Shown one piece after another: positions 7,414-27,197 of a stretch of 27,197 nt of DNA. The notes under the pieces were generated by a model. It was not told the origin of the DNA. It worked only from the letters and a program-made list of their open reading frames with translations, and did not search any database. The stretch lies in assembly GCA_903861945.1 (NCBI GenBank), contig CAIOWM010000156.1, positions 1 through 27,197 of the forward strand, given 5' to 3'. The DNA comes from an uncultured Archangium sp. GTDB taxonomy: Bacteria; Myxococcota; Myxococcia; Myxococcales; Myxococcaceae. Positions within the stretch are counted from its first letter, which is position 1, and each line of letters opens with the position of its first letter. The position numbers and the translations under genes were made by a program.

Positions 7414-7512
7414 ACTCCTGGGGTGCGCCGAAGACGGCGATCGCTTACGCCCCTGCTTCTCCCCGGTTGCCCCAGTCACGCAGGGCCCCGGGTGACGCCA
7501 AAGAGGGCATCC

Positions 7513-10500
7513 ATGTTCGCGTTCGTACAGGTCGAGTTCCTCCGCATCCAGTCCGTCATCCGCGCGGGGGTCCTGGGGCTCGCGCTCCTGGCGGCCTCCG
7601 GCTGCGACGCCACCGTGGGTGAGCTGGCCTGTCCCGAGGGTGCCTTCTCGGGGTCGGACCGCGGGGTCTGCGCGCCCTGGACGGAGTGTCCTGCAGGGCA
7701 GCACCAGGTGGCTGCCGGAAGCGCGACGACGGACCGGACCTGCGCGAGCTGCGCCGCCGGGACCTTCAGCACGCAGGCCAACGCGGCGAGCTGCGCGGCG
7801 TGGACGACGTGCGTCGCCGGGGAGTTCGTCTCGCTCGAGGGCTCGGCCACCGCCGACCGGACCTGCGAGGCCTGCAGCGCGGGGACCTCCAGCACGGGCG
7901 TGAACCAGGCGGCGTGCACGGCCTCCGCCGGGTGCGAGCCCGGGACTGAGCAGGCGGCGCCAGCGACCACCACCGCCCCCGCGGTGTGCACGACCTGCAG
8001 CGCCGGTCACTTCTGCGCGGGCGGTGTGGCGCCGGCCGTGGCCTGCGGGCCCGGGACGTGGGACCGCGACGGGCTGCCCGCCACGGCGTGCGAACCGCAG
8101 AGCCACTGCGGCCCCGGGACGTCCGTGCTGGCTCCCGCGACCGCGACGGAAGACCAGACCTGCTCGGGCTGCGCGAGCGGCTCGTACAGCACCGCGACGG
8201 ACGCGGCGACGTGCACGCCGTGGGCGACGTGCCCGGCCGGTACCTTCGTCAACGACACGCCGTCGGCGACCGTCGACCAGACCTGCGCCGCCTGCGCGCC
8301 TGGAACCTTCACCACGGGCGCGAACCAAGTGACGTGCCTGGCGATCGGCGCGTGCCCTGCGGGGACGGTGCAGACGGCCCCGGCCACGGCGACGACGCCG
8401 CCCACCTGCAGCGCCTGCGTCGCCGGCACCTACTGCGCGGGCGGCAGCGCGACGGCCCTGGCCTGTGCCGTGGGCACCTGGGACCACGACGGTGATGCCT
8501 CGACGCCGTGCACGGCCCACACGGAGTGCGTCGCGGGGCAGTTCATGCTGACCGCGGGCACCGCCACCGCGGACCGGGTGTGTGGCGCGTGCGTGTCCGG
8601 CTACACCTCGAGCGGGAACCCGACGAGCTGCACCGCGTGGACGACCTGCGCCGCGGGCACCTTCGTGGCGACGCCGGGCACCGCGACGAGCGACCGGGTG
8701 TGCGCCGCGTGTGCCTCGGGCTACACGGCCAGCGCGAACGCGACGAGCTGCTCCGCGTGGGCGACGTGCGCGGCGGGGACCTTCGTGTCGACCGCGGGGA
8801 CGGCGACGGCCAACCGGGTCTGCACGGCCTGCGGCTCAGGCTTCACCTCGAGCCCGAACGCGACGAACTGCACGGCCTGGTCGGCGTGCGCGGCGGGGAC
8901 CTTCGTGGCGACCGCGGGGACGTCGACGGCCGACCGGGTGTGCGCCGCGTGTGCGTCTGGCTACACCGCGAGCCTCAACGCCGCGAGCTGCACCGCGTGG
9001 ACGACCTGCGCGGCGGGGACCTCCGTGGTGACCGCGGGCACCGCGACGGCCAATCGGACCTGCCTCGCGTGCAGCGCCGGCTTCACCTCGGGCACGAACG
9101 CCGCGAGCTGCACGTCCTGGACGACCTGCCTCGCCGGAACGTACGTCTCGACGGTCGGCACCGCGACGGTCGACCGCTCGTGCAGCCCGTGCGGCACCGG
9201 CTTCACGGCGGGCGCGAACGCCGCGGCCTGCACCGCGTGGACGACGTGCGCCGCGGGGACGTCGATCTCCGTCGCCGGCACCGCGACCAACAACCGGGCG
9301 TGCACCCCCTGCGCCTCCGGCTTCGCGCCGGGCCAGAACGCCCTGGCCTGCACCGCGTGGACGACGTGCCCGGCCGGTACCTTCGTCAGCACCACGCCGT
9401 CAGCGACCACCGACCGGGTGTGCGCGCCGTGCGTCTCCGGCTACACGGGGGCCCCGAACTCCCTGGGCTGTCAGCCGTGGAGCATCTGCACCCCGGGCAC
9501 CTTCGTGTCGGTCGCCAGCACGGCCACGTCGGACCTGCAGTGCACGGCGTGCCCCGCGGGCCAGACCAGCACCACGTCGAACGCGGCCGGGTGTCTGCCG
9601 GGCAGGTCCGTCGGCGGCACGGTCACGGGCCTGACCAGCGCGGGCCTGGTCCTGCAGAACAACCTGGGCGATGACCTGGCCGTCACGGCCAATGGCGCCT
9701 TCACCTTCGCGACGCCCCTGGCGGGTGCCGGCGCCAGCTACTCGGTCACGGTGAAGACGCCGCCGACCGCGAACCTGCCGCTCCCGGTCCAGGTCCAGGC
9801 GTGCACCCTGCTGAAGACCTCCGGGACGACCTTGCTGAACACCGGGTCGGGCACGGTGCCTCCCACCGGGAACGTCACCACCATCGAGCTGCGCTGTGGC
9901 GGGGCGTGGAGCGCGGTGGCGGCCGGGTACGCACACGTCCTGGCGGTGAAACCCACGGGGGACGTGTACGCGTGGGGCGACAACACCAATGCCGCGTTGG
10001 GCGACGGGACCACGACGGCACGCTCCACGCCGGTATGGGTGGGCGCCGGCCTGGCCAAGGTGGCGGCCGGCGGAAGCCACAGCCTGGCACTCGCTCCCGA
10101 CGGCTCACTGTGGGCGTGGGGGTTCAACTTCACAGGCCAGCTGGGCGACGGGAAGACGGAGGTCCAACGCAACCGGCCAGCGCCCGTGCCGCTGGCAGCG
10201 CCGCCCTTCCGCGCGGTGGCGGCGGGCCAGAGCCACACCGTGGCCGTCAAGACGGACGGGACCCTCTGGGCCTGGGGCAACAACGACTTTGGCCAGGTCG
10301 GGGACGGGACGACGGCGACTGAGCGCGATGCGCCCGTGCAGATCGGCACCGGCTTCGCGTCGGTGGCGGCCGGCGAGACCCACTCCCTGGCGGTCAAGAC
10401 GGACGGGACCCTCTGGGCCTGGGGCAAGAACGACTTTGGCCAGCTCGGGGACGGGACGACGACGCACCGCTTTGCGCCCGTGCAGGTCGGCACCGGCTTC

Positions 10501-10926
10501 GCGTCGGTGGCCGGGGGCTCCTCCTATTCGGCGGCGGTGAAGACGGACGGCACGCTGTGGACGTGGGGCATCAACGGCTACGGGGCGTTGGGAGACGGGA
10601 CCACCACGACGCGCCTCGCGCCGGTGCAAGTGGGGAGCGGCTTCGCCTCGGTCGCGACCGGCTCGTGGAACACCTACGCGCTCAAGCCCGACGGCACGCT
10701 CTGGGCCTGCGGGTACAACGTCTACGGGCAGGTCGGTGACGGGACGACGACGACGCGCACCACGCTGGTGCCCATTGGCCCGGGGTTCGCGTCCGTGGCC
10801 GCAGGAAGCAGCTTCGCGGCCGCGCTGATGTTGGACAAGACGGTGTGGACCTGGGGCTACAACGGCCGGTTCAGCCTGGGCACCGGTGGCACCGTCAACA
10901 GCTCGACGCCCCAGTTCCTGCCCTAG
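7513..10926 (+). CDS. Giant secreted protein of 1137 aa. It has about 20 Cys-rich, 40-aa repeats of the ephrin-receptor-like / GCC2_GCC3 / TNFR-like type, then a beta-sandwich linker, then a C-terminal 7-blade RCC1-type beta-propeller.
   Basis: The N-terminus [31 protein letters not shown] is a signal peptide. The repeat consensus is C.AC.SG(Y/F)T.....(T/S)C.AW(T/A)TC.AGTFV...GTAT.DRVC. The tail carries 7 copies of the RCC1 repeat [34 protein letters not shown]. The listed ORF 7423..10926 is trimmed to the ATG at 7513, which has AGAGGG upstream. Confidence 0.8.
8521..9480 (+). repeat. Intragenic tandem DNA repeat: 120-nt period (40 aa), at least 8 consecutive copies that are highly similar at the nucleotide level
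   Basis: The string tgcaccgcgtggacgacctgcgc(g/c)gcggg(g/c)acc(t/g)tcgtg recurs at 8629, 8749, 8869, 8989, 9109, 9229 and 9349, an exact 120-nt spacing. More diverged copies run from about 7700 to 8500 and from 9480 to 9600. Confidence 0.8.
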
Positions 10927-13916: not shown

Positions 13917-15365
13917 TCACGCTGGCGCAGTCGCGCGGTCCCGAACGGCGCCGTCGAATGCCCGGAGGCGGTGCACCAGCACCTCGCCCTCGATGCCCTT
14001 GAGATGCAAGCGCTCGGAGTTGGACGAGGCGAAGCGGGTGCGCGCGATCTCCAGCGCCGCGGGGTGGTCGAACACGTCCTGGGTGGTGACCACTTCGCCG
14101 GCGGCGGCCCTGGCCTGAACGCGGGCGGCGACGTTGACGGTGCGGCCGAAGTAGTCGAGCTGCTGGTTGGACTCGATGGCCACGCACGAGCCCACGTGCA
14201 CGCCGATCTTCAGGGTCAGTGACTCGCTCGCCTCGAGCTTCGCCATCTCTTCGTGCATCGCGGCCGCGGCCGCGAGCGCTCGGGAGGGCTCGGCGAAGCT
14301 GGCCATCACCGCGTCGCCGATGGTCTTGACCACCGCGCCCCGCTCGCGGGCGATGACCGACTCGAGCACCTCGAAGTGACGACGGACCAGCGCGAGCGCC
14401 TGGAGGTCGCCCACGCGCTCGTAGAGCTCGGTCGACGCGGTGAGGTCGGTGAAGAGAATGGCGAGGCTGCGCAGCTGCATGCCGCCGTCGGTGCCGACGC
14501 TCTGGGCGCGGTAGAGCTCGCGGAAGGTCTGGTTGGTGAGCAACTGCTTGGCGCTGACGAAGGGCATGAAGGCGATGACGTGTGAGGCCCAGTCAAAGGT
14601 CTTCGCCCACTCCGTCGAGGACCAGAGCATCAGCGCGGGGTGCCGGGTGCGGTTGCGGACGGTGAGCCGCACCTTTCCCGTGGCCAGGGTGCTGGTGCCG
14701 ACGAGGTGCCCGTCGATGATCTCGACCGACTGCACCGCCGCCCCACCCGGCCCCGCCTCGAGGTGCGCGATGGCGTGCTGGTTCGCCCCGACCAGCGCAT
14801 AGGAACCCTCGGTGAGCTCGAGGTCGAACACCGCGCTGGCCTCGGGTGCGATCCACGCCATGCGCTCCATCGAGTCGGCGATGGCCTGGTGCATCGGCCC
14901 GCGAATCAGGCTGCGGGAATAGAAGGCGTCGGTGAAGTGAGCGCGCACCTCTTCGAGCGTGCCCAGCCGCGTCGAGGGCAGCCTGCGAACGGCTTCGGCC
15001 ACGGTGAAGGAGGCCTCGACGGTGTCATCGAGGGAGACCGTCACCGGGCGCCGGCAGAAGTTGCACACCGCGCTGCGCTCGAGCTGCTGCAGCGCGCCCT
15101 TCGTCGCGACGTGGAGCCCACAGGCAGGGCACATGAGGTTCCACGCGAGATCGAAGATCCCCGCGTGGCTGGCGCAGAGAAAGAGGTCGAGCGCGTCGCC
15201 TTCGCTGACGCCCTCGCCCTTCGCCCACCCGAGCACGTTGATGCGTTCGAGGGAGGTGTCGGAGGCTTCGCGAACGAAGTGACCGAGCTTCGGCAGCAGC
15301 GACTTCAGTTGCGGGTACGCCCGCCCCATGGCTTCGAGGCGGCCTTCCAGAGAGGCCCATGACAT
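13917..15365 (-). CDS. Class III adenylate/guanylate cyclase (CHD catalytic domain) with an N-terminal Cys4 zinc-ribbon-containing sensor domain (DUF5939-like), 482 aa
   Basis: The C-terminal region LAILFTDLTASTELYERVGD....HFEVLESVIARERGAVVKTIGDAVMASF......AAAAMHEEMAKL......LKIGVHVGSCVA.....DYFGRTVNVAARVQ is the nucleotidyl cyclase CHD signature. The N-terminal region has CPACG...CNFC. The listed ORF start at 15458 adds a low-GC3, PRPPP-rich extension, so I prefer the ATG at 15365 (MSWASL). Confidence 0.8.
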   Translation of the reverse strand: MSWASLEGRLEAMGRAYPQLKSLLPKLGHFVREASDTSLERINVLGWAKGEGVSEGDALDLFLCASHAGIFDLAWNLMCPACGLHVATKGALQQLERSAVCNFCRRPVTVSLDDTVEASFTVAEAVRRLPSTRLGTLEEVRAHFTDAFYSRSLIRGPMHQAIADSMERMAWIAPEASAVFDLELTEGSYALVGANQHAIAHLEAGPGGAAVQSVEIIDGHLVGTSTLATGKVRLTVRNRTRHPALMLWSSTEWAKTFDWASHVIAFMPFVSAKQLLTNQTFRELYRAQSVGTDGGMQLRSLAILFTDLTASTELYERVGDLQALALVRRHFEVLESVIARERGAVVKTIGDAVMASFAEPSRALAAAAAMHEEMAKLEASESLTLKIGVHVGSCVAIESNQQLDYFGRTVNVAARVQARAAAGEVVTTQDVFDHPAALEIARTRFASSNSERLHLKGIEGEVLVHRLRAFDGAVRDRATAPA

Positions 15366-15409
15366 GCGCGCGATGTTAGTCCGGGCGCCGGTCGCCGTCG
15401 CCGCCTCAC

Positions 15410-15419
15410 GGGGGGGGGG
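15410..15419. repeat. G10 homopolymer tract (C10 on the strand that codes the cyclase), 45 to 55 nt upstream of the cyclase start
   Basis: Read directly: ctcacggggggggggccgagg. Runs like this are rare in this window. It would encode PPP if the longer cyclase ORF from 15458 were the real one. Confidence 0.9.
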
Positions 15420-15596
15420 CCGAGGTCGAGTCGGACCAGATGCGCGGCGAGCGCGCATCCTGCCCAGGTCAACGAGCGAAGTTGCGCGCAGGCTTCGATT
15501 CGCCGCCCCGGAGGTCGAGGCCGAGGCGCCGAAACGAACGAAGGCGGCGGAGCACCTCGCTCCACCGCCTCCGCAGGACGTCAGCTCAGCGGCGCC

Positions 15597-17696: not shown

Positions 17697-19055
17697 TCAC
17701 TCGGCGAGCACGCCCACGAGGTACTCGCCGGCGAGCGGGCCGGTGGGCGCCTGGTAGGTGTCGAGCGACAGCCAGTACGTACCGGCCGCGAGCTGCCGGG
17801 TGAGGAACTTGTCGTGGCGCGCGATGCAGGACTGGCCCGAGCCGGGGTCCGACAGGAGGTGCACGTCGATGTCGGCGTTGCCCAGCGAGACCACCACCAC
17901 GCGCAGGTTGGTGGGTTGGGTGAGCTCGAGGCGGTAGAGCACCTCGCGGCCCCCTTCGTTGGTGGTCGAGCCGCACCCCGGGTAGCTGTCGAGACGCGCC
18001 GCGCCGTCGGTGCGCGTGTCGCGGGTGTCGACGAAGGGCAGCGAGGTGACGGCGATCTCGTCTCCGCGGACGCCGGTGCCGGGGCGGCGGGGGGCCGTGA
18101 GGTCGGCCGGGGCGCCCTGCTCCACCGCGGCCCAGGCGCGCGCGAGGGCCTCGAGGGTGCCGAGGTTGCGCGCGTTGTGCCCGAAGTCGAGCGGCCCGGG
18201 GTTCAGGTTGCAGCCGCGCGGTCCGCCCGAGAGGAAGACGTTGAGGTGGATGCCGTCGGGGCCCAGGCCGTGTGCCGTGACGCCCTGCAGCTCGCGGTGG
18301 AGATCGATGAAAGGCACCTGGCGCGCCTGGGCCACGCCGCGGGCGACGAGGTTGTAGCGGGGCACCCAGGCGTCGGCCGTCGCGCTGTCATCGCGCGGGG
18401 GCACGGAGGTGATGAGCGGCACCACGCCCTGGGCGGTGAGCGTGTCGACGAGGCTGAAGAGGTTGCGACCGAAGCTGGCCGGGTCGGCGAAGCCCACGTC
18501 GTTGGTGCCGAACATCACCGTGGCGTAGCGCGGCGAGGCGGCGTCGAGCTCCTGCTGCAACGGGGAAGGCGTGCCGGCGCTGGCGGCGCTGGCGCTCCAG
18601 CCGACGGTGGCGGCCAGCGTGGTGCGGTCGAAGGGCGACGTGGTGCCCACCCGGCCCGCGCGGAAATGCGCCAGCACCGCGTCGAGCGAGCTGCGACCCG
18701 CGAGGTCGACCTGCGCGCCGGCGAAGCACGACAGGTAGCTCGCGTTCACGGTGTTCGAGTCGCCGATCTTCGAGAAGACGTTGCCCTTCTTCGCAGGGGC
18801 GAGGGCGGCGATGGCCTGGAGCCGGGTGACGACCTCCGCGGTGAGCGGCGAGTGCTTGCGGTCCAGGGGGTACACCAGCACCGAGGGGCCCGCGTCGGGA
18901 GGCGTCACGGCCACGCCCGCGTCGGAGGCGAGCGCCACCGAGCCGTCAGGCAGGGACTCCACCGGGAAGCTGGCGCCAGCGTCCTCTTCGAACTCGAGCG
19001 GCACCACCCCACACGCGGCGAGCAGCACACAGGGAAAGAGGAGGGGGAACCGCAT
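17697..19055 (-). CDS. SGNH/GDSL-family hydrolase (esterase/lipase) lipoprotein with a C-terminal bacterial pre-peptidase C-terminal (PPC) domain, 452 aa
   Basis: MRFPLLFPCVLLAACG carries a lipobox (L-A-A-C). FSKIGDSNT is SGNH block I (GDS). MFGTNDVG is block III and LGPDGIHLN is block V (D..H). The C-terminal region YRLELTQPTNLRVVVVSLGNADIDVHLL.....C......L.AGTYWLSLDTY is PPC-like. Confidence 0.8.
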   Translation of the reverse strand: MRFPLLFPCVLLAACGVVPLEFEEDAGASFPVESLPDGSVALASDAGVAVTPPDAGPSVLVYPLDRKHSPLTAEVVTRLQAIAALAPAKKGNVFSKIGDSNTVNASYLSCFAGAQVDLAGRSSLDAVLAHFRAGRVGTTSPFDRTTLAATVGWSASAASAGTPSPLQQELDAASPRYATVMFGTNDVGFADPASFGRNLFSLVDTLTAQGVVPLITSVPPRDDSATADAWVPRYNLVARGVAQARQVPFIDLHRELQGVTAHGLGPDGIHLNVFLSGGPRGCNLNPGPLDFGHNARNLGTLEALARAWAAVEQGAPADLTAPRRPGTGVRGDEIAVTSLPFVDTRDTRTDGAARLDSYPGCGSTTNEGGREVLYRLELTQPTNLRVVVVSLGNADIDVHLLSDPGSGQSCIARHDKFLTRQLAAGTYWLSLDTYQAPTGPLAGEYLVGVLAE

Positions 19056-19100
19056 CCGGGGTCCGTTCTCGCACACCTCGGGGGGGAACTTCGACGGGGG

Positions 19101-20570
19101 TCAGCGAGAGAGGCGCGCTCGCAGCAGGGCCAGCGCAGCCAGGAAGCCCAGGCTGTCCAGCGAGGAGCAGCCACAGCCGGTCAGGGGCGTGTCCACCCCG
19201 GGGCCTGCGTCGACAGCGCCGTCACCACCGCCGGTGACCGGGTCGCTGCTTCCGCCACCCCCACCGGAGGCCGCGCCACCACCACTCCCACCCGTCGCCG
19301 AGCCGCCACCACCACCACCACTCCCGCCACCCGCCCCGGCGTCGGCCACGCCCGCGTCACATTCACCGAGCGCGTGCTCCAGGGCCCCGGCGGTCCACGC
19401 GCTCGGGGTGCGCAACCGCGCGCAGTAGTCATCGGTCACGCCAGCCGGAGGCGTCACCTGGCCGAGCCACGCCGCCACCGAGCCGCGCACGCGCAGGTCG
19501 CCGCTCAGCGCGCTCGCGTAGGCCGCGTCGAAGGTGGCGAGGGACACGCCGGTCACGTTCTGCGTCGCGGTCATGGTGGCCGCGTCACGGGTGCGCACCG
19601 CGGAGGTGAGCAGGTTGCCCACGGCCCGGCCGCTGGTGGTGTCGAAGCGGAAGTCGACGCCCGTGGTGCCCACCAGGGTGTTGTGCAGCACCGAGGTGTT
19701 GCGCGCGCGGTTCAGGTACACGCCGACGTCGCTGCAGTTGGCGATGACGTTGTTCCGCAGCACGCCGTCTTCGTGCTCCACGGCGCAGGGCACGTTGGCG
19801 TCGAAGGCCGGGGCACAGAACTGGTTGCCGGTGCCGCCCCCTCCGAACGAGAGCCCGAGGCGCACGTCGCTCATGGCCTGGCCGCCGCTCTTGCACAGCA
19901 CGAGGTTGCGCTCGTAGAGCCCGCGCTTGCCGCCGGACTTCATGAAGCTGCCGTAGCTGGTGAAGTTTCCGCCGTTCTTCGAGAAGTCTCGGATGACGTT
20001 GTCGCGCACCACGAAGTCGTCGCCGGTGTCGATGTTCAGCTTGGTGACCGGGTTGGCCGTGTTGCGCGGGCGCGTGTCGTAGACCTCGCAGCGTTCGACG
20101 AGGCCCCGGTGCGGCATGTCGTAGCCTCCGTCACCCGCGGGCGTGGCGTTGACCTTGAGCTGGGCGTTGAAGTCGACGAGGCGCAGGCGGCGCAGCACCA
20201 CGTCGGTGGCGCGGCCCGTGACCTGGAACGCGTGCTCGCAGTTGGAGTCGTCGGCGCACACCCCGCGCATCGCGAAGTCCTCGAAGCGCCAGAACGGCGC
20301 GCTGACGCCGATGGCGATGAGGGTGTTCGACTCGAGGGTGGCGCCCCACGGCGTCTCGCCGCGCACCACGATGGGCAAGGCCTGCGTGCCGGTGGCGACG
20401 CAGGAGAGCTTCGAGGTCAGCGCATAGGTGCCGTCGGCCAGGGTGATGACGTCGCCAGGCTGCGCCGCCGCGAGGGCCGCGCGCAGTTGGGGCTCGGTGG
20501 TGACGCGGACGTCACGCGCGGCGGCGAAGGAAGCGAAGAGGGCGAGCGACAGGAAGAGGAGGCGGCGCAT
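19101..20570 (-). CDS. Right-handed parallel beta-helix protein (PL6/chondroitinase-B-like polysaccharide-lyase fold) with a Gly-rich linker and a C-terminal MYXO-CTERM sorting signal, 489 aa
   Basis: MRRLLFLSLALFASFAAA is a signal peptide. TEPQLRAALAAAQPGDVITLADGTY is a PL6-type N-terminal motif. Repeated N..(I/V).N / RDNVIRD / HNTL beta-helix rungs follow. The tail is GGGSGGGGGGS...TGCGCSSLDSLGFLAALALLRARLSR (nt about 19104..19178). Confidence 0.8.
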   Translation of the reverse strand: MRRLLFLSLALFASFAAARDVRVTTEPQLRAALAAAQPGDVITLADGTYALTSKLSCVATGTQALPIVVRGETPWGATLESNTLIAIGVSAPFWRFEDFAMRGVCADDSNCEHAFQVTGRATDVVLRRLRLVDFNAQLKVNATPAGDGGYDMPHRGLVERCEVYDTRPRNTANPVTKLNIDTGDDFVVRDNVIRDFSKNGGNFTSYGSFMKSGGKRGLYERNLVLCKSGGQAMSDVRLGLSFGGGGTGNQFCAPAFDANVPCAVEHEDGVLRNNVIANCSDVGVYLNRARNTSVLHNTLVGTTGVDFRFDTTSGRAVGNLLTSAVRTRDAATMTATQNVTGVSLATFDAAYASALSGDLRVRGSVAAWLGQVTPPAGVTDDYCARLRTPSAWTAGALEHALGECDAGVADAGAGGGSGGGGGGSATGGSGGGAASGGGGGSSDPVTGGGDGAVDAGPGVDTPLTGCGCSSLDSLGFLAALALLRARLSR

Positions 20571-22206: not shown

Positions 22207-23085
22207 ATGCGCTCCCTCCTCTTTTCCGCGGTGATGCTCATCTCCAGCGTTTCTCTCGGTGCCGACATTGCCGGCACCCTGAGCGGTACGTTCGTCAACT
22301 TCGACCAGTTCGGCACGCCGCAGGTGCGCTTCAATCTCGACCTGACGTGCGCGCTGAGCTGCACCGCCTCCGCGCCGGGACCTCACTACGGGAGCACGGG
22401 CTACATCGACGGCTACTTCGCCTCGGAGCCCAGCACGGGCTTGTGTCTCATCGGCCTGGCCAACCTCTTCGCCGACGTCGACCCCACGGGGAGCGCCACC
22501 AGGGTGAGCTCGCCGCCCGCGGGTTCGCGGATCACCGCGCGCGCCAACGGCGTGACGTGCTGGTGCGGGGGCTCGCTGGCCATCGGCCAGGGGGGGTTCA
22601 TCCAACCCGAGTCGGGGATCATCTCGATTCCTCCGTCCTTCAGCGGCGACCAGACGGCGAAGGTGGGCGAGCAGGCCTTCATCCTCGTGACGGCCGCGCC
22701 CAGGGGCAGCGAGACGGTGGAGGTGACCACGTCGGGCGCGGGCCTCGCGACGTCCACGCAGACCTTCGGGCCCAGCGACTTTCCCTCGAACAGCAGCTGC
22801 CCCTCGGCAGGCTTCAAGTCGCTGCAGCTGACGCCCACGCAGGCCGGCACGCTGACCATCACCGCGACCCTGAACCCGGGCGCCGCGACCTCGACGTACA
22901 CCGTGACGGTCAGCGCCTCGGGCTCGGGCGGTGGCGGGGGCAGCGCTTCGACGGGCGGGGGCAGCGGCAGCACGGGCGGTGGTTCCGGGAGCACTGACGG
23001 GGGCTGCAGCGCGGTGCCAGTGCCGCTGCTCCTCGCGGTCGGCGCGTGGCTGGCGCGTCGTCGTGCGCAGGCGCCCGGGTGCTGA
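22207..23085 (+). CDS. Secreted hypothetical protein with a Gly/Ser linker and a MYXO-CTERM sorting signal, 292 aa
   Basis: MRSLLFSAVMLISSVSLGADIAG is a signal peptide. The body is Thr/Ser-rich and beta-rich. The tail is GSGGGGGSASTGGGSGSTGGGSGSTDGGCSAVPVPLLLAVGAWLARRRA (nt about 22999..23082). The listed ORF 22060..23085 is trimmed to the ATG at 22207. Confidence 0.7.
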   Translation: MRSLLFSAVMLISSVSLGADIAGTLSGTFVNFDQFGTPQVRFNLDLTCALSCTASAPGPHYGSTGYIDGYFASEPSTGLCLIGLANLFADVDPTGSATRVSSPPAGSRITARANGVTCWCGGSLAIGQGGFIQPESGIISIPPSFSGDQTAKVGEQAFILVTAAPRGSETVEVTTSGAGLATSTQTFGPSDFPSNSSCPSAGFKSLQLTPTQAGTLTITATLNPGAATSTYTVTVSASGSGGGGGSASTGGGSGSTGGGSGSTDGGCSAVPVPLLLAVGAWLARRRAQAPGC

Positions 23086-23153
23086 AGCGCGCGGGGACAT
23101 ACCTGGCGGCTGGATTCTGCGCGACACTGCGTGCCGTGAGGAACCGGGTCTCG

Positions 23154-24056
23154 ATGGTCGCGGCGGTGGTGATGGTGTCCTGCGGCGAGGTGCCCTGCGA
23201 GGGGGTCAGCATCGCGAGCGCCGCGGAGTGGAAGCGCTGGGCAGACCGGGGCTGCACGCACGTCTACGGCGCGCTCGCGGTGACCGCGCCCGACCTGGTG
23301 GACATCGACGCGCCCGTGTTGCGCGAGGTCGACGGCGGCGTGACCATTTCGGGGAACGCCGCGCTCGAGACCGCGAGCTTCGGCGCGCTGGCGAGCACCA
23401 CCAGCCTCGACCTGCAGAACGACCCCTCGCTCACGCGCTTCGCGGCGCCCATGCTCACGGCGCTGGGTGGCCCGGTGAACGTACTGGGCGACGACGCGCT
23501 GACGACGCTCAGCCTGCCCCGCCTCCAGACCCTCGACGGTGAGCTGCGGCTCGACGTGCACGCGCTGACGGCGCTCGAGCTCCCCGCGCTCACCAGCGCC
23601 ACCAGCCTGCTGCTGCAGGACAACGTCGCGCTCACCACGCTCTCGTTGCCCGCGCTCACCGCGGTGCAGGTCATCGCCGTGCACGACAACCCCGCGCTGC
23701 GCGAGGTGCACCTGGCACGCCTGGCGAGCGCCACCTCGGTCGGCCTCTACGCCAACAGCGCGCTCACCAGCGTCGACCTCGCGGCGCTCTCGACCACCCG
23801 GGAGCTCACCCTCGGCGGACCGCTGACCTCGTTGCTCGCGGGGCAGCTGCGCTCGGCCGACAGGCTGAACATCCGCGGTACCAGCCTCGAGCGGCTCGGG
23901 CTCCCGGCGCTCACCGCGGCGAGCCAGAGCCTCGACATCTCGGGCAACGCGGTGCTGCCGCAGTGCGAGGTCGACGCGGTGGTGCGGCGGCTGACGACGC
24001 CCCCCGCGGCCGGCGTACGCGCGACGGGGAACCTCGGCAGCGCGACCTGTCCCTGA
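23154..24056 (+). CDS. Leucine-rich-repeat-like (receptor L-domain / BspA-like) repeat lipoprotein, 300 aa
   Basis: MVAAVVMVSCGEVPCEG is a signal peptide with a lipobox-like VSC. About 9 tandem repeats of about 22 to 24 aa follow, of the type LT(T/A)L.LPALT...L.L.DN.AL. GC3 is high. The antisense ORF 22413..25013 is a shadow. Confidence 0.65.
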   Translation: MVAAVVMVSCGEVPCEGVSIASAAEWKRWADRGCTHVYGALAVTAPDLVDIDAPVLREVDGGVTISGNAALETASFGALASTTSLDLQNDPSLTRFAAPMLTALGGPVNVLGDDALTTLSLPRLQTLDGELRLDVHALTALELPALTSATSLLLQDNVALTTLSLPALTAVQVIAVHDNPALREVHLARLASATSVGLYANSALTSVDLAALSTTRELTLGGPLTSLLAGQLRSADRLNIRGTSLERLGLPALTAASQSLDISGNAVLPQCEVDAVVRRLTTPPAAGVRATGNLGSATCP

Positions 24057-24227
24057 GGCGGATTCCGAGCCGAGGCCTCGCACGGATGGCTCGCGCCGCA
24101 CCCCTCTGCTCCGGCTCGCCCCCTGACCCTGCACCCGGGTTTCGTGGAGAAGTGGAGCGAGGACTCCTCGAGCGTCAGTGAACTCATGCCGCGGGCAATC
24201 GTGCGGCGGGGAGTAGCCTGCGTCCCC

Positions 24228-25355
24228 ATGGCTCGCTGGCTGACCACCACGCTGTGCACCGCGGCGCTGCTCTCCTGTCATCCGATGCGCGCGGCCCTCG
24301 ACCGGGGGGCGCTCACCGAGGCCTGCTTCACAGGCTACGACGCGAAGGTGCCCACGGCCGATCCCGACCGCGACCGGCTCCACGCGCTGCTCATGGCGCA
24401 GACGCAGGTCGAATGGCGCATCGAGCGCGTGTCCCTCGTGGACCTGTTGCCGCCGGACGCGGTGGCCGTCGCGGTGGGCATGGATGAACTCCGCAAGCAG
24501 GTCACCTACCGCCTGACCTACGAGGCCCGGGGGCTGCCTGCGGGCGCGACCCTGGCCCTGCAACCGCCCACCCTCCTCACCTCGACGGAGTCGGCGAGCT
24601 TCACGCCCCTGTTCAACTTCGGCGATACGGACGTCGCGCGGGAGGCCCGCTGGATGCTGCGTGAGCCGTCGGCGCCGAGCTACGAGCGGGTGCCGGCCCA
24701 GTACCTGCCCCGCGAGTTCGTCGAAGAAACGGAGCCAGGGAAGTGGGTCTACCGGGGCGGCGTGGATCCCGCGCAGCTGGCCATCGCGATGTTGACCGGT
24801 GGCCTGAGCGCGATCCTCCGCGGTGGAGACCTGGGGCAGGAGAAGGACTGGGCCCCGCTCTCGCCCTCGGAGAAGGCCGCCTGGAAGAAGCGGCAGGCCT
24901 CGCAGCACAAGGCCCTGGACCGTGAAGAGGGCGCCCGTCTCGCCGAGAGCCGCAAGGTCATCGAGGCCGTGCTCGCGCGCAACCAGGTGACGAAGGCGCA
25001 CTTCGAGCAACAACAGACGGCCTACGTCACCCTCCTCGCGGCGCTGACCGAACTGTTCCGGGCCGACCGCTGCCTCCAGTCGACGATCTCCTCGCGGCTG
25101 CAGGCCGGTCGCCGCTGCACCCTCTTCGCCCGCGAGTCGAGCAACAACCCCTCGTGGGCGGACAGGAGGCTGAAGAAGGGGGTGCTCACGCTCAGGGGCG
25201 AGCTGCGCCTGGGCGACGTGAGCTACGCCTGCCCGTGGGACTTCAAAGAGGAGATCCCCCTCGAAGGCGAGGAGACGATGGCCCAGGTCTCGGCGCGGCT
25301 GTTCTCCGCGGGACCGCGGCGCCTCGTGCCGGTGCGCACCACGTACTTCGAGTGA
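24228..25355 (+). CDS. Hypothetical lipoprotein, 375 aa, with no recognisable domain
   Basis: MARWLTTTLCTAALLSCHP carries a lipobox (L-L-S-C). GC3 is high throughout. The listed ORF 24144..25355 is trimmed to the ATG at 24228. Confidence 0.55.
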   Translation: MARWLTTTLCTAALLSCHPMRAALDRGALTEACFTGYDAKVPTADPDRDRLHALLMAQTQVEWRIERVSLVDLLPPDAVAVAVGMDELRKQVTYRLTYEARGLPAGATLALQPPTLLTSTESASFTPLFNFGDTDVAREARWMLREPSAPSYERVPAQYLPREFVEETEPGKWVYRGGVDPAQLAIAMLTGGLSAILRGGDLGQEKDWAPLSPSEKAAWKKRQASQHKALDREEGARLAESRKVIEAVLARNQVTKAHFEQQQTAYVTLLAALTELFRADRCLQSTISSRLQAGRRCTLFARESSNNPSWADRRLKKGVLTLRGELRLGDVSYACPWDFKEEIPLEGEETMAQVSARLFSAGPRRLVPVRTTYFE

Positions 25356-25357
25356 CC

Positions 25358-25933
25358 ATGGCCCCGCCTCGCGAGCCGTGCTCTGCAGGGTCGATGCAAG
25401 TCCTTCGCGGGGTGTTGAGCTGCTGGGCGCTGGGGTGCGGCCTGGTGCCTTCGGTGCCCGACGCCGCGGTGCCCCCGTCGGACGGCGGCGCGACGGGCTG
25501 CCCGCTCGAGGCCGCGCTGATCACCCCCGACGCGATGGCGTTGCAGGGCATCGAGCTGGGGCGGCGCACGGTCACCGTGCTCGGCGTGACGCGGGAGCTC
25601 GTCTTGCTGCGCCTGCCGACGGCCGATGGGAAGTCCACCTTCGCGGTGTGGGCACCTCCGTTGCCGGGCGCAGGGGTGCAACCGGCGGTGTTGCCCACGC
25701 AGCCCTACGACGGCATCGACTGGTCGGGGGAAGCGGTCGACGCGCGGTGGGCGAGCGCGTGCGCGACGGGGGCTTGCCTGCGCTCCGACACCGATGGACC
25801 GGGTGGTGGCCCCGCCGCGGGCGTCATCGGCTACGCGCTGCTGTCCCCCGAGACGTGGGCCCAGCAAGCGGGCGTGACCGTCGCCCCGGAGGCCGCGCAG
25901 CAGTACCTGCTGACGATGGGCCTGCCTCCCTGA
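25358..25933 (+). CDS. Hypothetical protein, 191 aa. It is probably exported, and it is translationally coupled to the upstream gene.
   Basis: Its ATG lies 2 nt after the upstream TGA (25353..25355). An alternative start is the ATG at 25394 (MQVLRGVLSCWALGCG, signal-like). GC3 is high from about 25400 onward. I recognise no domain. Confidence 0.45.
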   Translation: MAPPREPCSAGSMQVLRGVLSCWALGCGLVPSVPDAAVPPSDGGATGCPLEAALITPDAMALQGIELGRRTVTVLGVTRELVLLRLPTADGKSTFAVWAPPLPGAGVQPAVLPTQPYDGIDWSGEAVDARWASACATGACLRSDTDGPGGGPAAGVIGYALLSPETWAQQAGVTVAPEAAQQYLLTMGLPP

Positions 25934-26030
25934 GGGGAAAGCCCGGGCGAGGAAGCGAACAGCTGGACCCGGGGCTGGCCGGACCTCGAGCGCTCGACGC
26001 CGTGCCCAAACCCGCTAGAAGCCAGCGCCC

Positions 26031-26651
26031 ATGAGCTACGACAAGGAACTGCTGCAGGGGTTCGTCAACGCCATCGGCGGCCACGGCGTCACCGGCGTGA
26101 AGCGCCTCGCGGTCACGAGCTGCGAAGCGCCCGGCGCGCCGCCGCACAACATCCACGCCTTCTACCGGTTGTTCGGCACCGACGAGCGCCGCGAGGCAGA
26201 TGGCCTCTTCGTCATCACCACGGGCCTCGGCCTGCAGCCGCTCGGCTCGGCCGTCGAGCACAGCCTCTCGCGCTTCGAGCTCTTCACCTGGGTCGACACG
26301 CTCGAGCTGGCGGGGAGCGACGTGCTGGTCGGGCTCTCGGCGCTGGGCCGCCTGCTCCACGCGCAGGCCACGCCGGACAGCGCGCCGTGGTTCCTCGGGC
26401 ACACCCTGTCGTTCGCCCCGGGCGATGGCCTCGGCGGGTGGGACTCGTTTCTCTTCGCGCGCCACGGCCGGTCCGTCGAGACCAGCGTCGGCCCGGTGGA
26501 CCTCGCGCGCGTGATGCCGCTCACGCCGGCCGAGCGGCAGCGCACGCGCGAGCAGGAGACCATGCTCGACGGCGCTGCCCTGGTGGTCGAGCTCGAGAAC
26601 CGCGACTACCGCGGCACGCTCGCGCGCTGGCACACGCCGCCGGCGCGCTGA
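26031..26651 (+). CDS. SUFU-like (suppressor-of-fused) domain protein, 206 aa
   Basis: Its motifs align to SUFU-family landmarks. HNIHAFYRLFGTD...GLFVITTGLGLQPL matches H.YVS.GLS.L. SRFELFTWVD matches GFELTFRL. GPVDLARVMPLTPAERQRTREQ matches G.V.FLQIVG.T.EEL. GC3 is high. Confidence 0.65.
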   Translation: MSYDKELLQGFVNAIGGHGVTGVKRLAVTSCEAPGAPPHNIHAFYRLFGTDERREADGLFVITTGLGLQPLGSAVEHSLSRFELFTWVDTLELAGSDVLVGLSALGRLLHAQATPDSAPWFLGHTLSFAPGDGLGGWDSFLFARHGRSVETSVGPVDLARVMPLTPAERQRTREQETMLDGAALVVELENRDYRGTLARWHTPPAR

Positions 26652-26820: not shown

Positions 26821-27197
26821 ATGGTCTTCGTGCAGCGGTCGCGTGGGTTCATCGCCGTGGCGCTGCTCGCGCTCGGGTCGGTCGCGGCCTGCACGGTGCG
26901 CGCGGTGTCGATGCCCGGCACCTCCTACGCGGGGCCCGAGGCGCAGCCTGACCCGGCCCTCGTCGCGAGGTTGAACGCCGACGTGACCCAGCTCGCGGCC
27001 GGCTTCGGTGAGCGCAACGTGACCAATCAACCGGCGGCGCTCGAGCAGACCGCGGCGTGGCTCCGCACCCGGCTCGAGGGCCTGGGTTACGTGGTGCAGG
27101 AAGAGCCCATCAAGGTCGGCGAGCGCACCACGAAGAACCTCATCGTCGAGCGACGCGGCCGCGGCCTCGCCACGCAGTTGGTGTTGGTGGGTGCGCA
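26821..27197 (+). CDS. M28-family peptidase (aminopeptidase-like) lipoprotein, N-terminal fragment; the 3' end runs off the window
   Basis: MVFVQRSRGFIAVALLALGSVAAC has a lipobox (V-A-A-C). LVARLNADVTQLAAGFGERNVTNQPAALEQTAAWLRTRLEGLGYVVQEEPIKVGERTTKNLIVERRG is the typical M28 N-terminal block. The frame is open to the window end, so the ORF track did not list it. Confidence 0.6.
   Translation, partial: MVFVQRSRGFIAVALLALGSVAACTVRAVSMPGTSYAGPEAQPDPALVARLNADVTQLAAGFGERNVTNQPAALEQTAAWLRTRLEGLGYVVQEEPIKVGERTTKNLIVERRGRGLATQLVLVGA

Follow-up and report, generated by a model that had tools for sequence, protein, structure and literature searches.

Suppressor-of-fused (SUFU)-like domains in bacteria have been described as immunity proteins of polymorphic toxin systems. 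The role was proposed from gene neighborhoods, as was the view that, among immunity scaffolds, the superfamily comes second only to SUKH in versatility (PMC3113570; PMC3482391). The present analysis concerns gene E (positions 26031..26651), a gene for a SUFU-like protein in a 27,197-nucleotide (nt) stretch of DNA from an uncultured Archangium sp. (contig CAIOWM010000156.1); this whole stretch is referred to below as the window. A previous sequence-only reading had placed gene E at the end of a same-strand block of genes for exported proteins and had proposed a possible immunity-type module, and its general description of bacterial SUFU-like domains agrees with the papers just cited.

Members of the superfamily are often found in polyimmunity proteins or in loci without toxin genes, and for polyimmunity genes the absence of a toxin gene alongside is the usual case (PMC3113570; PMC3482391, sections 38-39). 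In Neisseria gonorrhoeae, the SuFu-superfamily genes belong to toxin operons, for example the operon of the NGO1392 toxin (PMC3113570). Toxin domains that Imm-SuFu is reported to neutralize are AHH, HNH, GH-E, DHNNK and EDA39C. Nucleases of the HNH/EndoVII type are the commonest, although not the sole, toxin class listed for Imm-SuFu, for which the signature residues are GxS, E, E and DxxR (PMC3482391, Table 3). In myxobacteria, the SitA lipoprotein toxins are delivered by outer-membrane exchange and the cytoplasmic SitI protein is encoded directly downstream; SitI1 belongs to the SUKH superfamily (PMC5562445). Most SitA proteins are 430-780 amino acids (aa) long (PMC5562445 supplementary file 1). 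They consist of a family-defining escort domain of ~375 aa followed by a toxin domain, and sitA and sitI are 'always found together' (PMC8546572).

When set beside these systems, gene E is a new divergent member, within a small clade, of the known SUFU superfamily. The account that we favor, with a probability of about 0.6, is that gene E is autonomous, looks monocistronic and encodes a cytoplasmic binding protein with the SUFU fold, which is most likely of the orphan immunity type. The SUFU fold itself holds, yet the adjacency of the genes at this locus is no evidence for a toxin-immunity module.

Predicted fold of the gene E product

A search of the gene E product against Pfam gave a match to the SUFU model (PF05076) that covered model positions 4-150 of 172, with E=0.15 and a score of 12.4 bits, below the gathering cut-off of 25 bits. 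All four close homologues examined matched SUFU (best E=1.6e-4). Sub-threshold matches were also obtained for most of the distant relatives, with scores that reached 23.2-23.9 bits and thus stayed under 25. Profiles built from 4 and from 19 family members retrieved no SUFU chain from PDB at E<=10. An AlphaFold2 model of the gene E product, built from the alignment of 19 family members, had a predicted local distance difference test score (pLDDT) of 94.4 and a predicted template modelling score (pTM) of 0.91, and when this model was submitted to Foldseek, two SUFU entries ranked first. On the strength of the model, the predicted fold is that of the SUFU N-terminal domain, and we regard the assignment as secure. 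The earlier SUFU-like call is thus upheld by the model and by Foldseek, and not by the direct Pfam search, which stays below threshold. The family is a divergent clade missed by the Pfam threshold and by PDB sequence searches: a small SUFU clade that lies under the limit of detection yet is clearly recognizable by structure.

Candidate counterparts of the SUFU signature residues, taken from the family alignment alone, are G65-L-G/S67 for GxS, E83 and E168 for the two glutamates, and D157-x-x-R160 for DxxR. In this alignment, E83 is invariant and E168 nearly so. The family also has a conserved C-terminal helical segment with the motif LENxDF..LARW.

Distribution and genomic context of the family

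When 1.84 billion representative proteins were searched exhaustively with a profile, 18 relatives (clusters) of gene E were obtained. Among the 185,579 species genomes of GTDB the family is represented by one locus, and no member was found in a scan of Joint Genome Institute (JGI) metagenomes or in a plasmid search. Those contigs with family members that carry a taxon name are myxobacterial, and the family is apparently a tiny myxobacterial clade. Its members are either stand-alone proteins or the C-terminal domain of larger ones. The latter are variable multidomain fusions, whose partners include a clamp-like domain and CpXC and are not known Imm domains.

The surroundings of the family members were examined in nine contexts: the window and the loci L001/2/3, L004, L007, L013, L014, L015, L016 and L017/L018. 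In none of them does a recognised toxin or Imm family stand next to the family member, and no association was seen with a Tox/Ntox domain or with an RHS, CdiA, MafB or similar gene. A linkage of homologues to toxin genes, on which the sequence-only reading had made the immunity interpretation depend in part, was accordingly not recognisable. The neighbors themselves differ from one context to another. In L001/2/3 (65% aa identity to gene E) and in L018 (62%), a divergent Ser/Thr kinase gene lies upstream of the homologue and a hybrid histidine kinase gene begins 10 nt after its stop codon. L004 (60%), from a Myxococcota metagenome-assembled genome, has upstream the gene for an unrelated protein that combines a signal peptide with a C-terminus of the outer-membrane type, and a convergent OmpA gene downstream. 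In L007-L010, L013, L014, L015 and L016 the neighbors are different again and include no recognised toxin. The only hint of a conflict system near any family member is found in L007.

That hint is contained in an overlapping gene pair (L007:1593-3256, minus strand) that is divergent from the fused family member P0017. The first gene encodes a 392-aa Cys-rich protein and the second a 161-aa protein with a sub-threshold match to SUKH-4 (E=0.021). A separate likeness between contexts is that a Pel9A-like beta-helix gene with an adjoining GDSL lipase gene occurs within a few kb of the family member both in the window (17697-20570, minus strand) and in the unrelated locus L014 (9899-12342); this may be residual synteny or coincidence.

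The closest relative of gene E, in L017, is 89% identical in aa and 86.5% identical in nt. The gene upstream of this homologue is sfsA (Pfam E=2.9e-21). By blastn, L017:363-1062 and window 25951-26651 are 86.5% identical in an alignment that runs to the gene E stop codon and begins only 18 nt past the stop codon of gene D, the upstream neighbor of gene E (Table 1). Within it, a conserved CCGCTAGA..GCGCCCATG block directly precedes the gene E start codon. Since similarity to L017 starts only at 25951, gene E travels together with the ~80 nt that precede it, and this segment, 25951..26030, is probably its own 5' region. The distal part of the spacer between genes D and E (window 25934-26030) aligns weakly with the 3' end of sfsA (L017:310-441), and looks like a degraded remnant of it. 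As judged from these alignments, the arrangement suggests an ancestral order of sfsA followed by gene E, with a rearrangement breakpoint just past the gene D stop codon, and the D-E junction would be a lineage-specific breakpoint. Gene E is not evolutionarily linked to the neighboring lipoprotein genes, and its place at the end of their block is a lineage-specific juxtaposition.

A divergence hot spot in one pair of contigs

Two related loci allowed the SUFU-like gene to be compared with its immediate flanks. Between L001:1073-2719 and L018:1-1623, the kinase sequences on either side (Ser/Thr kinase and hybrid histidine kinase) are 95-100% identical in nt, while the SUFU-like gene between them is only 58-95% identical. 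For this gene the synonymous divergence (dS) is 0.28 and the ratio of nonsynonymous to synonymous divergence (dN/dS) is 0.56; over codons 121-160, the proportions of nonsynonymous and synonymous differences (pN and pS) are about equal. A polymorphism raised relative to the flanking genome, as expected of an immunity gene, is thus seen in the L001/L018 pair, and it has the look of an allele that was replaced or is under diversifying selection. Should further strains show the same pattern, the clade would become a candidate for a locus of kin discrimination or orphan immunity in myxobacteria, organisms that carry very large polymorphic toxin repertoires.

Function of gene E

By analogy with other SUFU-superfamily proteins, the gene E product would probably be a stoichiometric protein binder that acts through the cleft of its split beta-sheet. 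Its partner in a bacterium would most likely be an incoming toxin domain, in which case gene E would be an orphan immunity-type gene; it would protect against a toxin of other strains and would not be the partner of a toxin encoded in the window. The rarity and patchiness of the family, the neighbors that are unstable even at 60-89% identity, and the L001/L018 hot spot all fit an accessory, conflict-type gene. The variable multidomain fusions of the family likewise speak for such behavior. An orphan immunity gene was one of the alternatives offered by the sequence-only reading, and it remains the leading functional guess, the SUFU fold having proved right and the superfamily being described as one of toxin immunity. 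Taken alone, the immunity role, which is argued from superfamily analogy and from the divergence pattern, would in our estimate have a little less than an even chance. Several observations weigh against it. No toxin gene was found beside any family member; the strong conservation of the C-terminal motif suggests a conserved partner and not hypervariable toxins; the spacing of only 10 nt between the gene and the hybrid histidine kinase gene downstream of it in one sub-lineage could point to signalling; and the divergence hot spot comes from one pair of metagenome contigs.

The same observations bear on the alternative that fares best, namely that the SUFU-fold protein acts as an adaptor, with a housekeeping or regulatory role unrelated to toxins, and binds and sequesters a cellular protein such as a component of a kinase pathway, much as Gli is tethered by eukaryotic SUFU. 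The placement of the homologue between Ser/Thr kinase and hybrid histidine kinase genes in L001/L002/L003 and L018 is consistent with such an adaptor, as are the retention of the C-terminal motif across the family, the lack of a toxin in the nine contexts, and the purifying selection seen between the window gene and its L017 relative (dN/dS 0.20). However, the kinase context is confined to one sub-lineage, and all other neighbors differ. The family is moreover extremely rare and patchy, unlike a housekeeping gene, and the gene forms a local divergence hot spot between genomes that are otherwise near-identical. We consider an adaptor role unlikely, although it is the most serious competitor of an orphan immunity-type binder.

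A more ambitious proposal is that gene E and its 17 or so relatives make up a third SUFU-superfamily clade, not described before and apparently confined to Myxococcota, that would constitute a hypervariable 'self-identity' immunity locus between conserved genes and whose longer forms are fused to a single sliding-clamp-like domain. If this were true, the clamp-like fusion would hint that the toxins guarded against act on the machinery of DNA replication or repair. In a bolder variant, the upstream lipoprotein would be a toxin of recent acquisition that reaches other cells by outer-membrane exchange and is neutralized by the gene E product. The proposal as a whole, with its variant, strikes us as improbable.

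The likelihood is lower still that gene D encodes a toxin and gene E its immunity protein, which is the pairing that the sequence-only reading had judged the most toxin-immunity-like. A lipoprotein gene that precedes one for a cytoplasmic member of an immunity superfamily does resemble sitA-sitI (PMC5562445). Genes D and E share a strand and are separated by 97 nt in which no terminator-like site was seen, and the absence of gene D homologues would be compatible with a fast-evolving toxin. However, the L017 relative has sfsA and not gene D upstream, with homology breaking just past the gene D stop codon, and neither a search of 5.8 billion proteins (in which the only match of gene D was to itself) nor tblastn in the fetched loci uncovered a gene D homologue. 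At 179-191 aa the gene D product is far shorter than most SitA proteins (PMC5562445; PMC8546572), and the sitAI genes are described as always joined in an operon (PMC8546572). The predicted product is exported, acidic (isoelectric point, pI, 4.3) and histidine-free, and hence not a nuclease of the HNH/EndoVII or HNH/AHH type. It had no match among Pfam toxin families, or elsewhere in Pfam, NCBIfam, PADLOC, PHROGs or PDB sequences. Gene D is therefore a poor toxin candidate for the SUFU superfamily, and on present evidence this upstream lipoprotein gene should not be pursued as a toxin. Because the neighbors change from genome to genome, the D-E pairing is unsupported, and with gene D lacking homologues as well as any toxin signature we do not retain it.

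The idea that genes C and D are the two pieces into which a frameshift broke a SitA-like lipoprotein toxin of ~560 aa (an escort and a toxin domain), and that gene E is its immunity gene, was rejected as highly implausible: the 375 aa of gene C equal the length of the ~375-aa SitA escort domains (PMC8546572), the two genes lie 2-38 nt apart in different reading frames and their combined length is within the SitA range (PMC5562445 supplementary file 1), but gene C has no NCBIfam or Pfam similarity and no relatives on metagenome contigs, gene D has its own lipobox-type N-terminus, the third-position G+C signal switches frame at the annotated gene boundary with no trace of an older frame, the arguments against a D-E linkage hold here too, and the size match is probably coincidence.

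One further similarity of gene D was recorded. Its residues 67-127 are 33% identical over 69 aa to L012:4394-4600, with a tblastn E of 0.002 that was obtained in a tiny database. The matching sequence is in the region of the 3' end of the M28 peptidase gene, and the similarity is probably compositional.

The gene block and its surroundings

The window has a G+C content of ~72%. Six open reading frames (ORFs) lie on the same strand at 22.2-27.2 kb, with a gene for a LysR-type regulator upstream of them (Table 1). The ORFs are present at the coordinates given in the earlier reading. In each of them the G+C content at third codon positions (GC3) is 0.90-0.96, and the GC3 frame switches exactly at the annotated boundaries; these are thus real coding regions. 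Genes A to E also appear, as independent gene calls, in three public assemblies of the source organism. A scan for promoters and terminators was uninformative in this high-GC DNA (0 promoters; 1 terminator-like site vs 1.3 expected), and no flanking repeats were seen that would suggest a mobile element.

Table 1. Features of the gene block at the 3' end of the window, with positions numbered from the first nt of the window.
Feature	Position	Strand	Description
Gene A	22207..23085	+	292 aa; signal peptide, secreted; Gly/Ser-rich tail; Cys-hydrophobic-RRR C-terminus resembling MYXO-CTERM
Gene B	23154..24056	+	300-aa repeat lipoprotein, leucine-rich repeat (LRR) / receptor-L-domain-like; 22-aa repeats; lipobox
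Gene C	24228..25355	+	375-aa lipoprotein, function unknown; canonical lipobox LLSC
Gene D	25394..25933 (or from 25358)	+	179-aa (191-aa) putative lipoprotein; lipobox ALGC
Probable 5' region of gene E	25951..26030	+	~80 nt, conserved with closest relative L017
Gene E	26031..26651	+	206 aa, cytoplasmic, no signal peptide; predicted SUFU N-terminal-domain fold, divergent myxobacterial clade
M28-family peptidase lipoprotein, start only	26821..27197, runs off window	+	Translation; PF04389 on public gene call

The statement that none of the neighbors has a recognisable toxin domain held up in searches of Pfam, NCBIfam, PADLOC, PHROGs and PDB sequences. Across these collections the upstream proteins gave only weak repeat matches; PADLOC, PHROGs and NCBIfam were empty for all five proteins, and PDB sequences offered nothing meaningful for genes B, C and D. 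When genes A to D and the M28 fragment were compared by tblastn with all fetched loci, nothing was found outside the window's own genome. The exported-protein block beside gene E is unexplained, with no sign of a toxin system.

For gene A, the only Pfam match is a weak one to a Cadherin-like domain. The MYXO-CTERM label that it had been given agrees with the look of its C-terminus; the NCBIfam search gave no match at E<=1, and the label is shaky. The gene A tail reads GGCSAVPVPLLLAVGAWLARRR. A more canonical tail of the MYXO-CTERM type, GCGCSS...LLRARLSR, is found in the Pel9A-like protein (19101-20570, minus strand); neither tail was confirmed as MYXO-CTERM by a hidden Markov model.

The descriptions of genes B and C given in the sequence-only reading proved sound. 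Gene B has repeats of 66 nt and a weak match to Recep_L_domain (Pfam E=0.0028) in addition to its lipobox, as befits an LRR-like lipoprotein. There is also an in-frame GTG at 23136, 18 nt 5' to the annotated ATG at 23154, and translation from it would yield MRNRVSMVAAVVMVSC; as a signal peptide of a lipoprotein this is far more typical than what the annotated start provides. The lipobox of gene C likewise agrees with its description as a lipoprotein; this gene had no family match in Pfam or NCBIfam, no PDB sequence match, and no relative among the JGI metagenome contigs.

The start of gene D is less clear. The earlier reading began it at 25358 and took it to be translationally coupled to gene C. 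Each of the three public gene calls has the start at 25394, which leaves 38 nt between it and the gene C stop codon, so the coupling is uncertain; the gene itself is not in question, with a GC3 of 0.91. The start at 25394 gives a better lipoprotein signal, MQVLRGVLSCWALGC, than does that at 25358. In this 179-aa form, the mature protein would comprise the residues after Cys15.

Two other genes of the window deserve mention. A 1167-aa protein encoded at 7423-10926 (plus strand) has six TNFR/NGFR cysteine-rich repeats and an RCC1-like beta-propeller (Pfam E=2e-129, 3e-58), a eukaryote-like combination that is here found on a bacterial contig. At 13917-15458 (minus strand) there is a gene for a protein with DUF5939 and an adenylate/guanylate cyclase catalytic domain. 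Genes for cyclic nucleotide (cNMP)-binding, PilZ-receiver and kinase proteins lie just past the window, and together with the cyclase they make this a region rich in signalling genes.

Comparison with known systems

The locus resembles sitA-sitI (sitBAI) in the type of organism and in gene order, with the lipoprotein gene first and then the gene for a cytoplasmic protein of a broad immunity superfamily. The resemblance ends there. SitA proteins have recognisable nuclease domains, whereas gene D, at 179-191 aa, is without homologues or a toxin signature. As compared with the published description of SitA, gene C has the length of an escort domain and no toxin domain, and genes C and D each have a lipobox and no NCBIfam or Pfam match; neither gene D nor gene E matches an NCBIfam model. 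In place of the close operon of sitA and sitI there is the D-E gap, and the nearest relative of gene E, in L017, is without gene D.

Among SUFU proteins of known structure, the closest points of reference are likewise distant. Eukaryotic Suppressor of fused (human 1m1l/4bl8, Drosophila 4kma) is 12-15% identical to the gene E product, which differs from it in lacking both the SUFU C-terminal domain and any Gli or Hedgehog context. The Neisseria gonorrhoeae SUFU-like protein (PDB 3k5j; PF05076) shares only 14% sequence identity and was not retrieved from PDB by the profile of the window family. It differs also in that the window family has the extra conserved C-terminal helical segment, and in that the N. 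gonorrhoeae SuFu genes are in toxin operons whereas gene E has no toxin neighbor.

The nearest described group is Imm-SuFu (Zhang, Iyer, Aravind 2011; Zhang et al. 2012). Gene E is set apart from it by a Pfam score under threshold, by the lack of a toxin association in the nine contexts, and by fusion partners that are not Imm domains. It shares with Imm-SuFu the superfamily fold and the occurrence of its family both as stand-alone proteins and in multidomain fusions, and contexts without a toxin gene have themselves been described for polyimmunity genes (PMC3482391, section 39).

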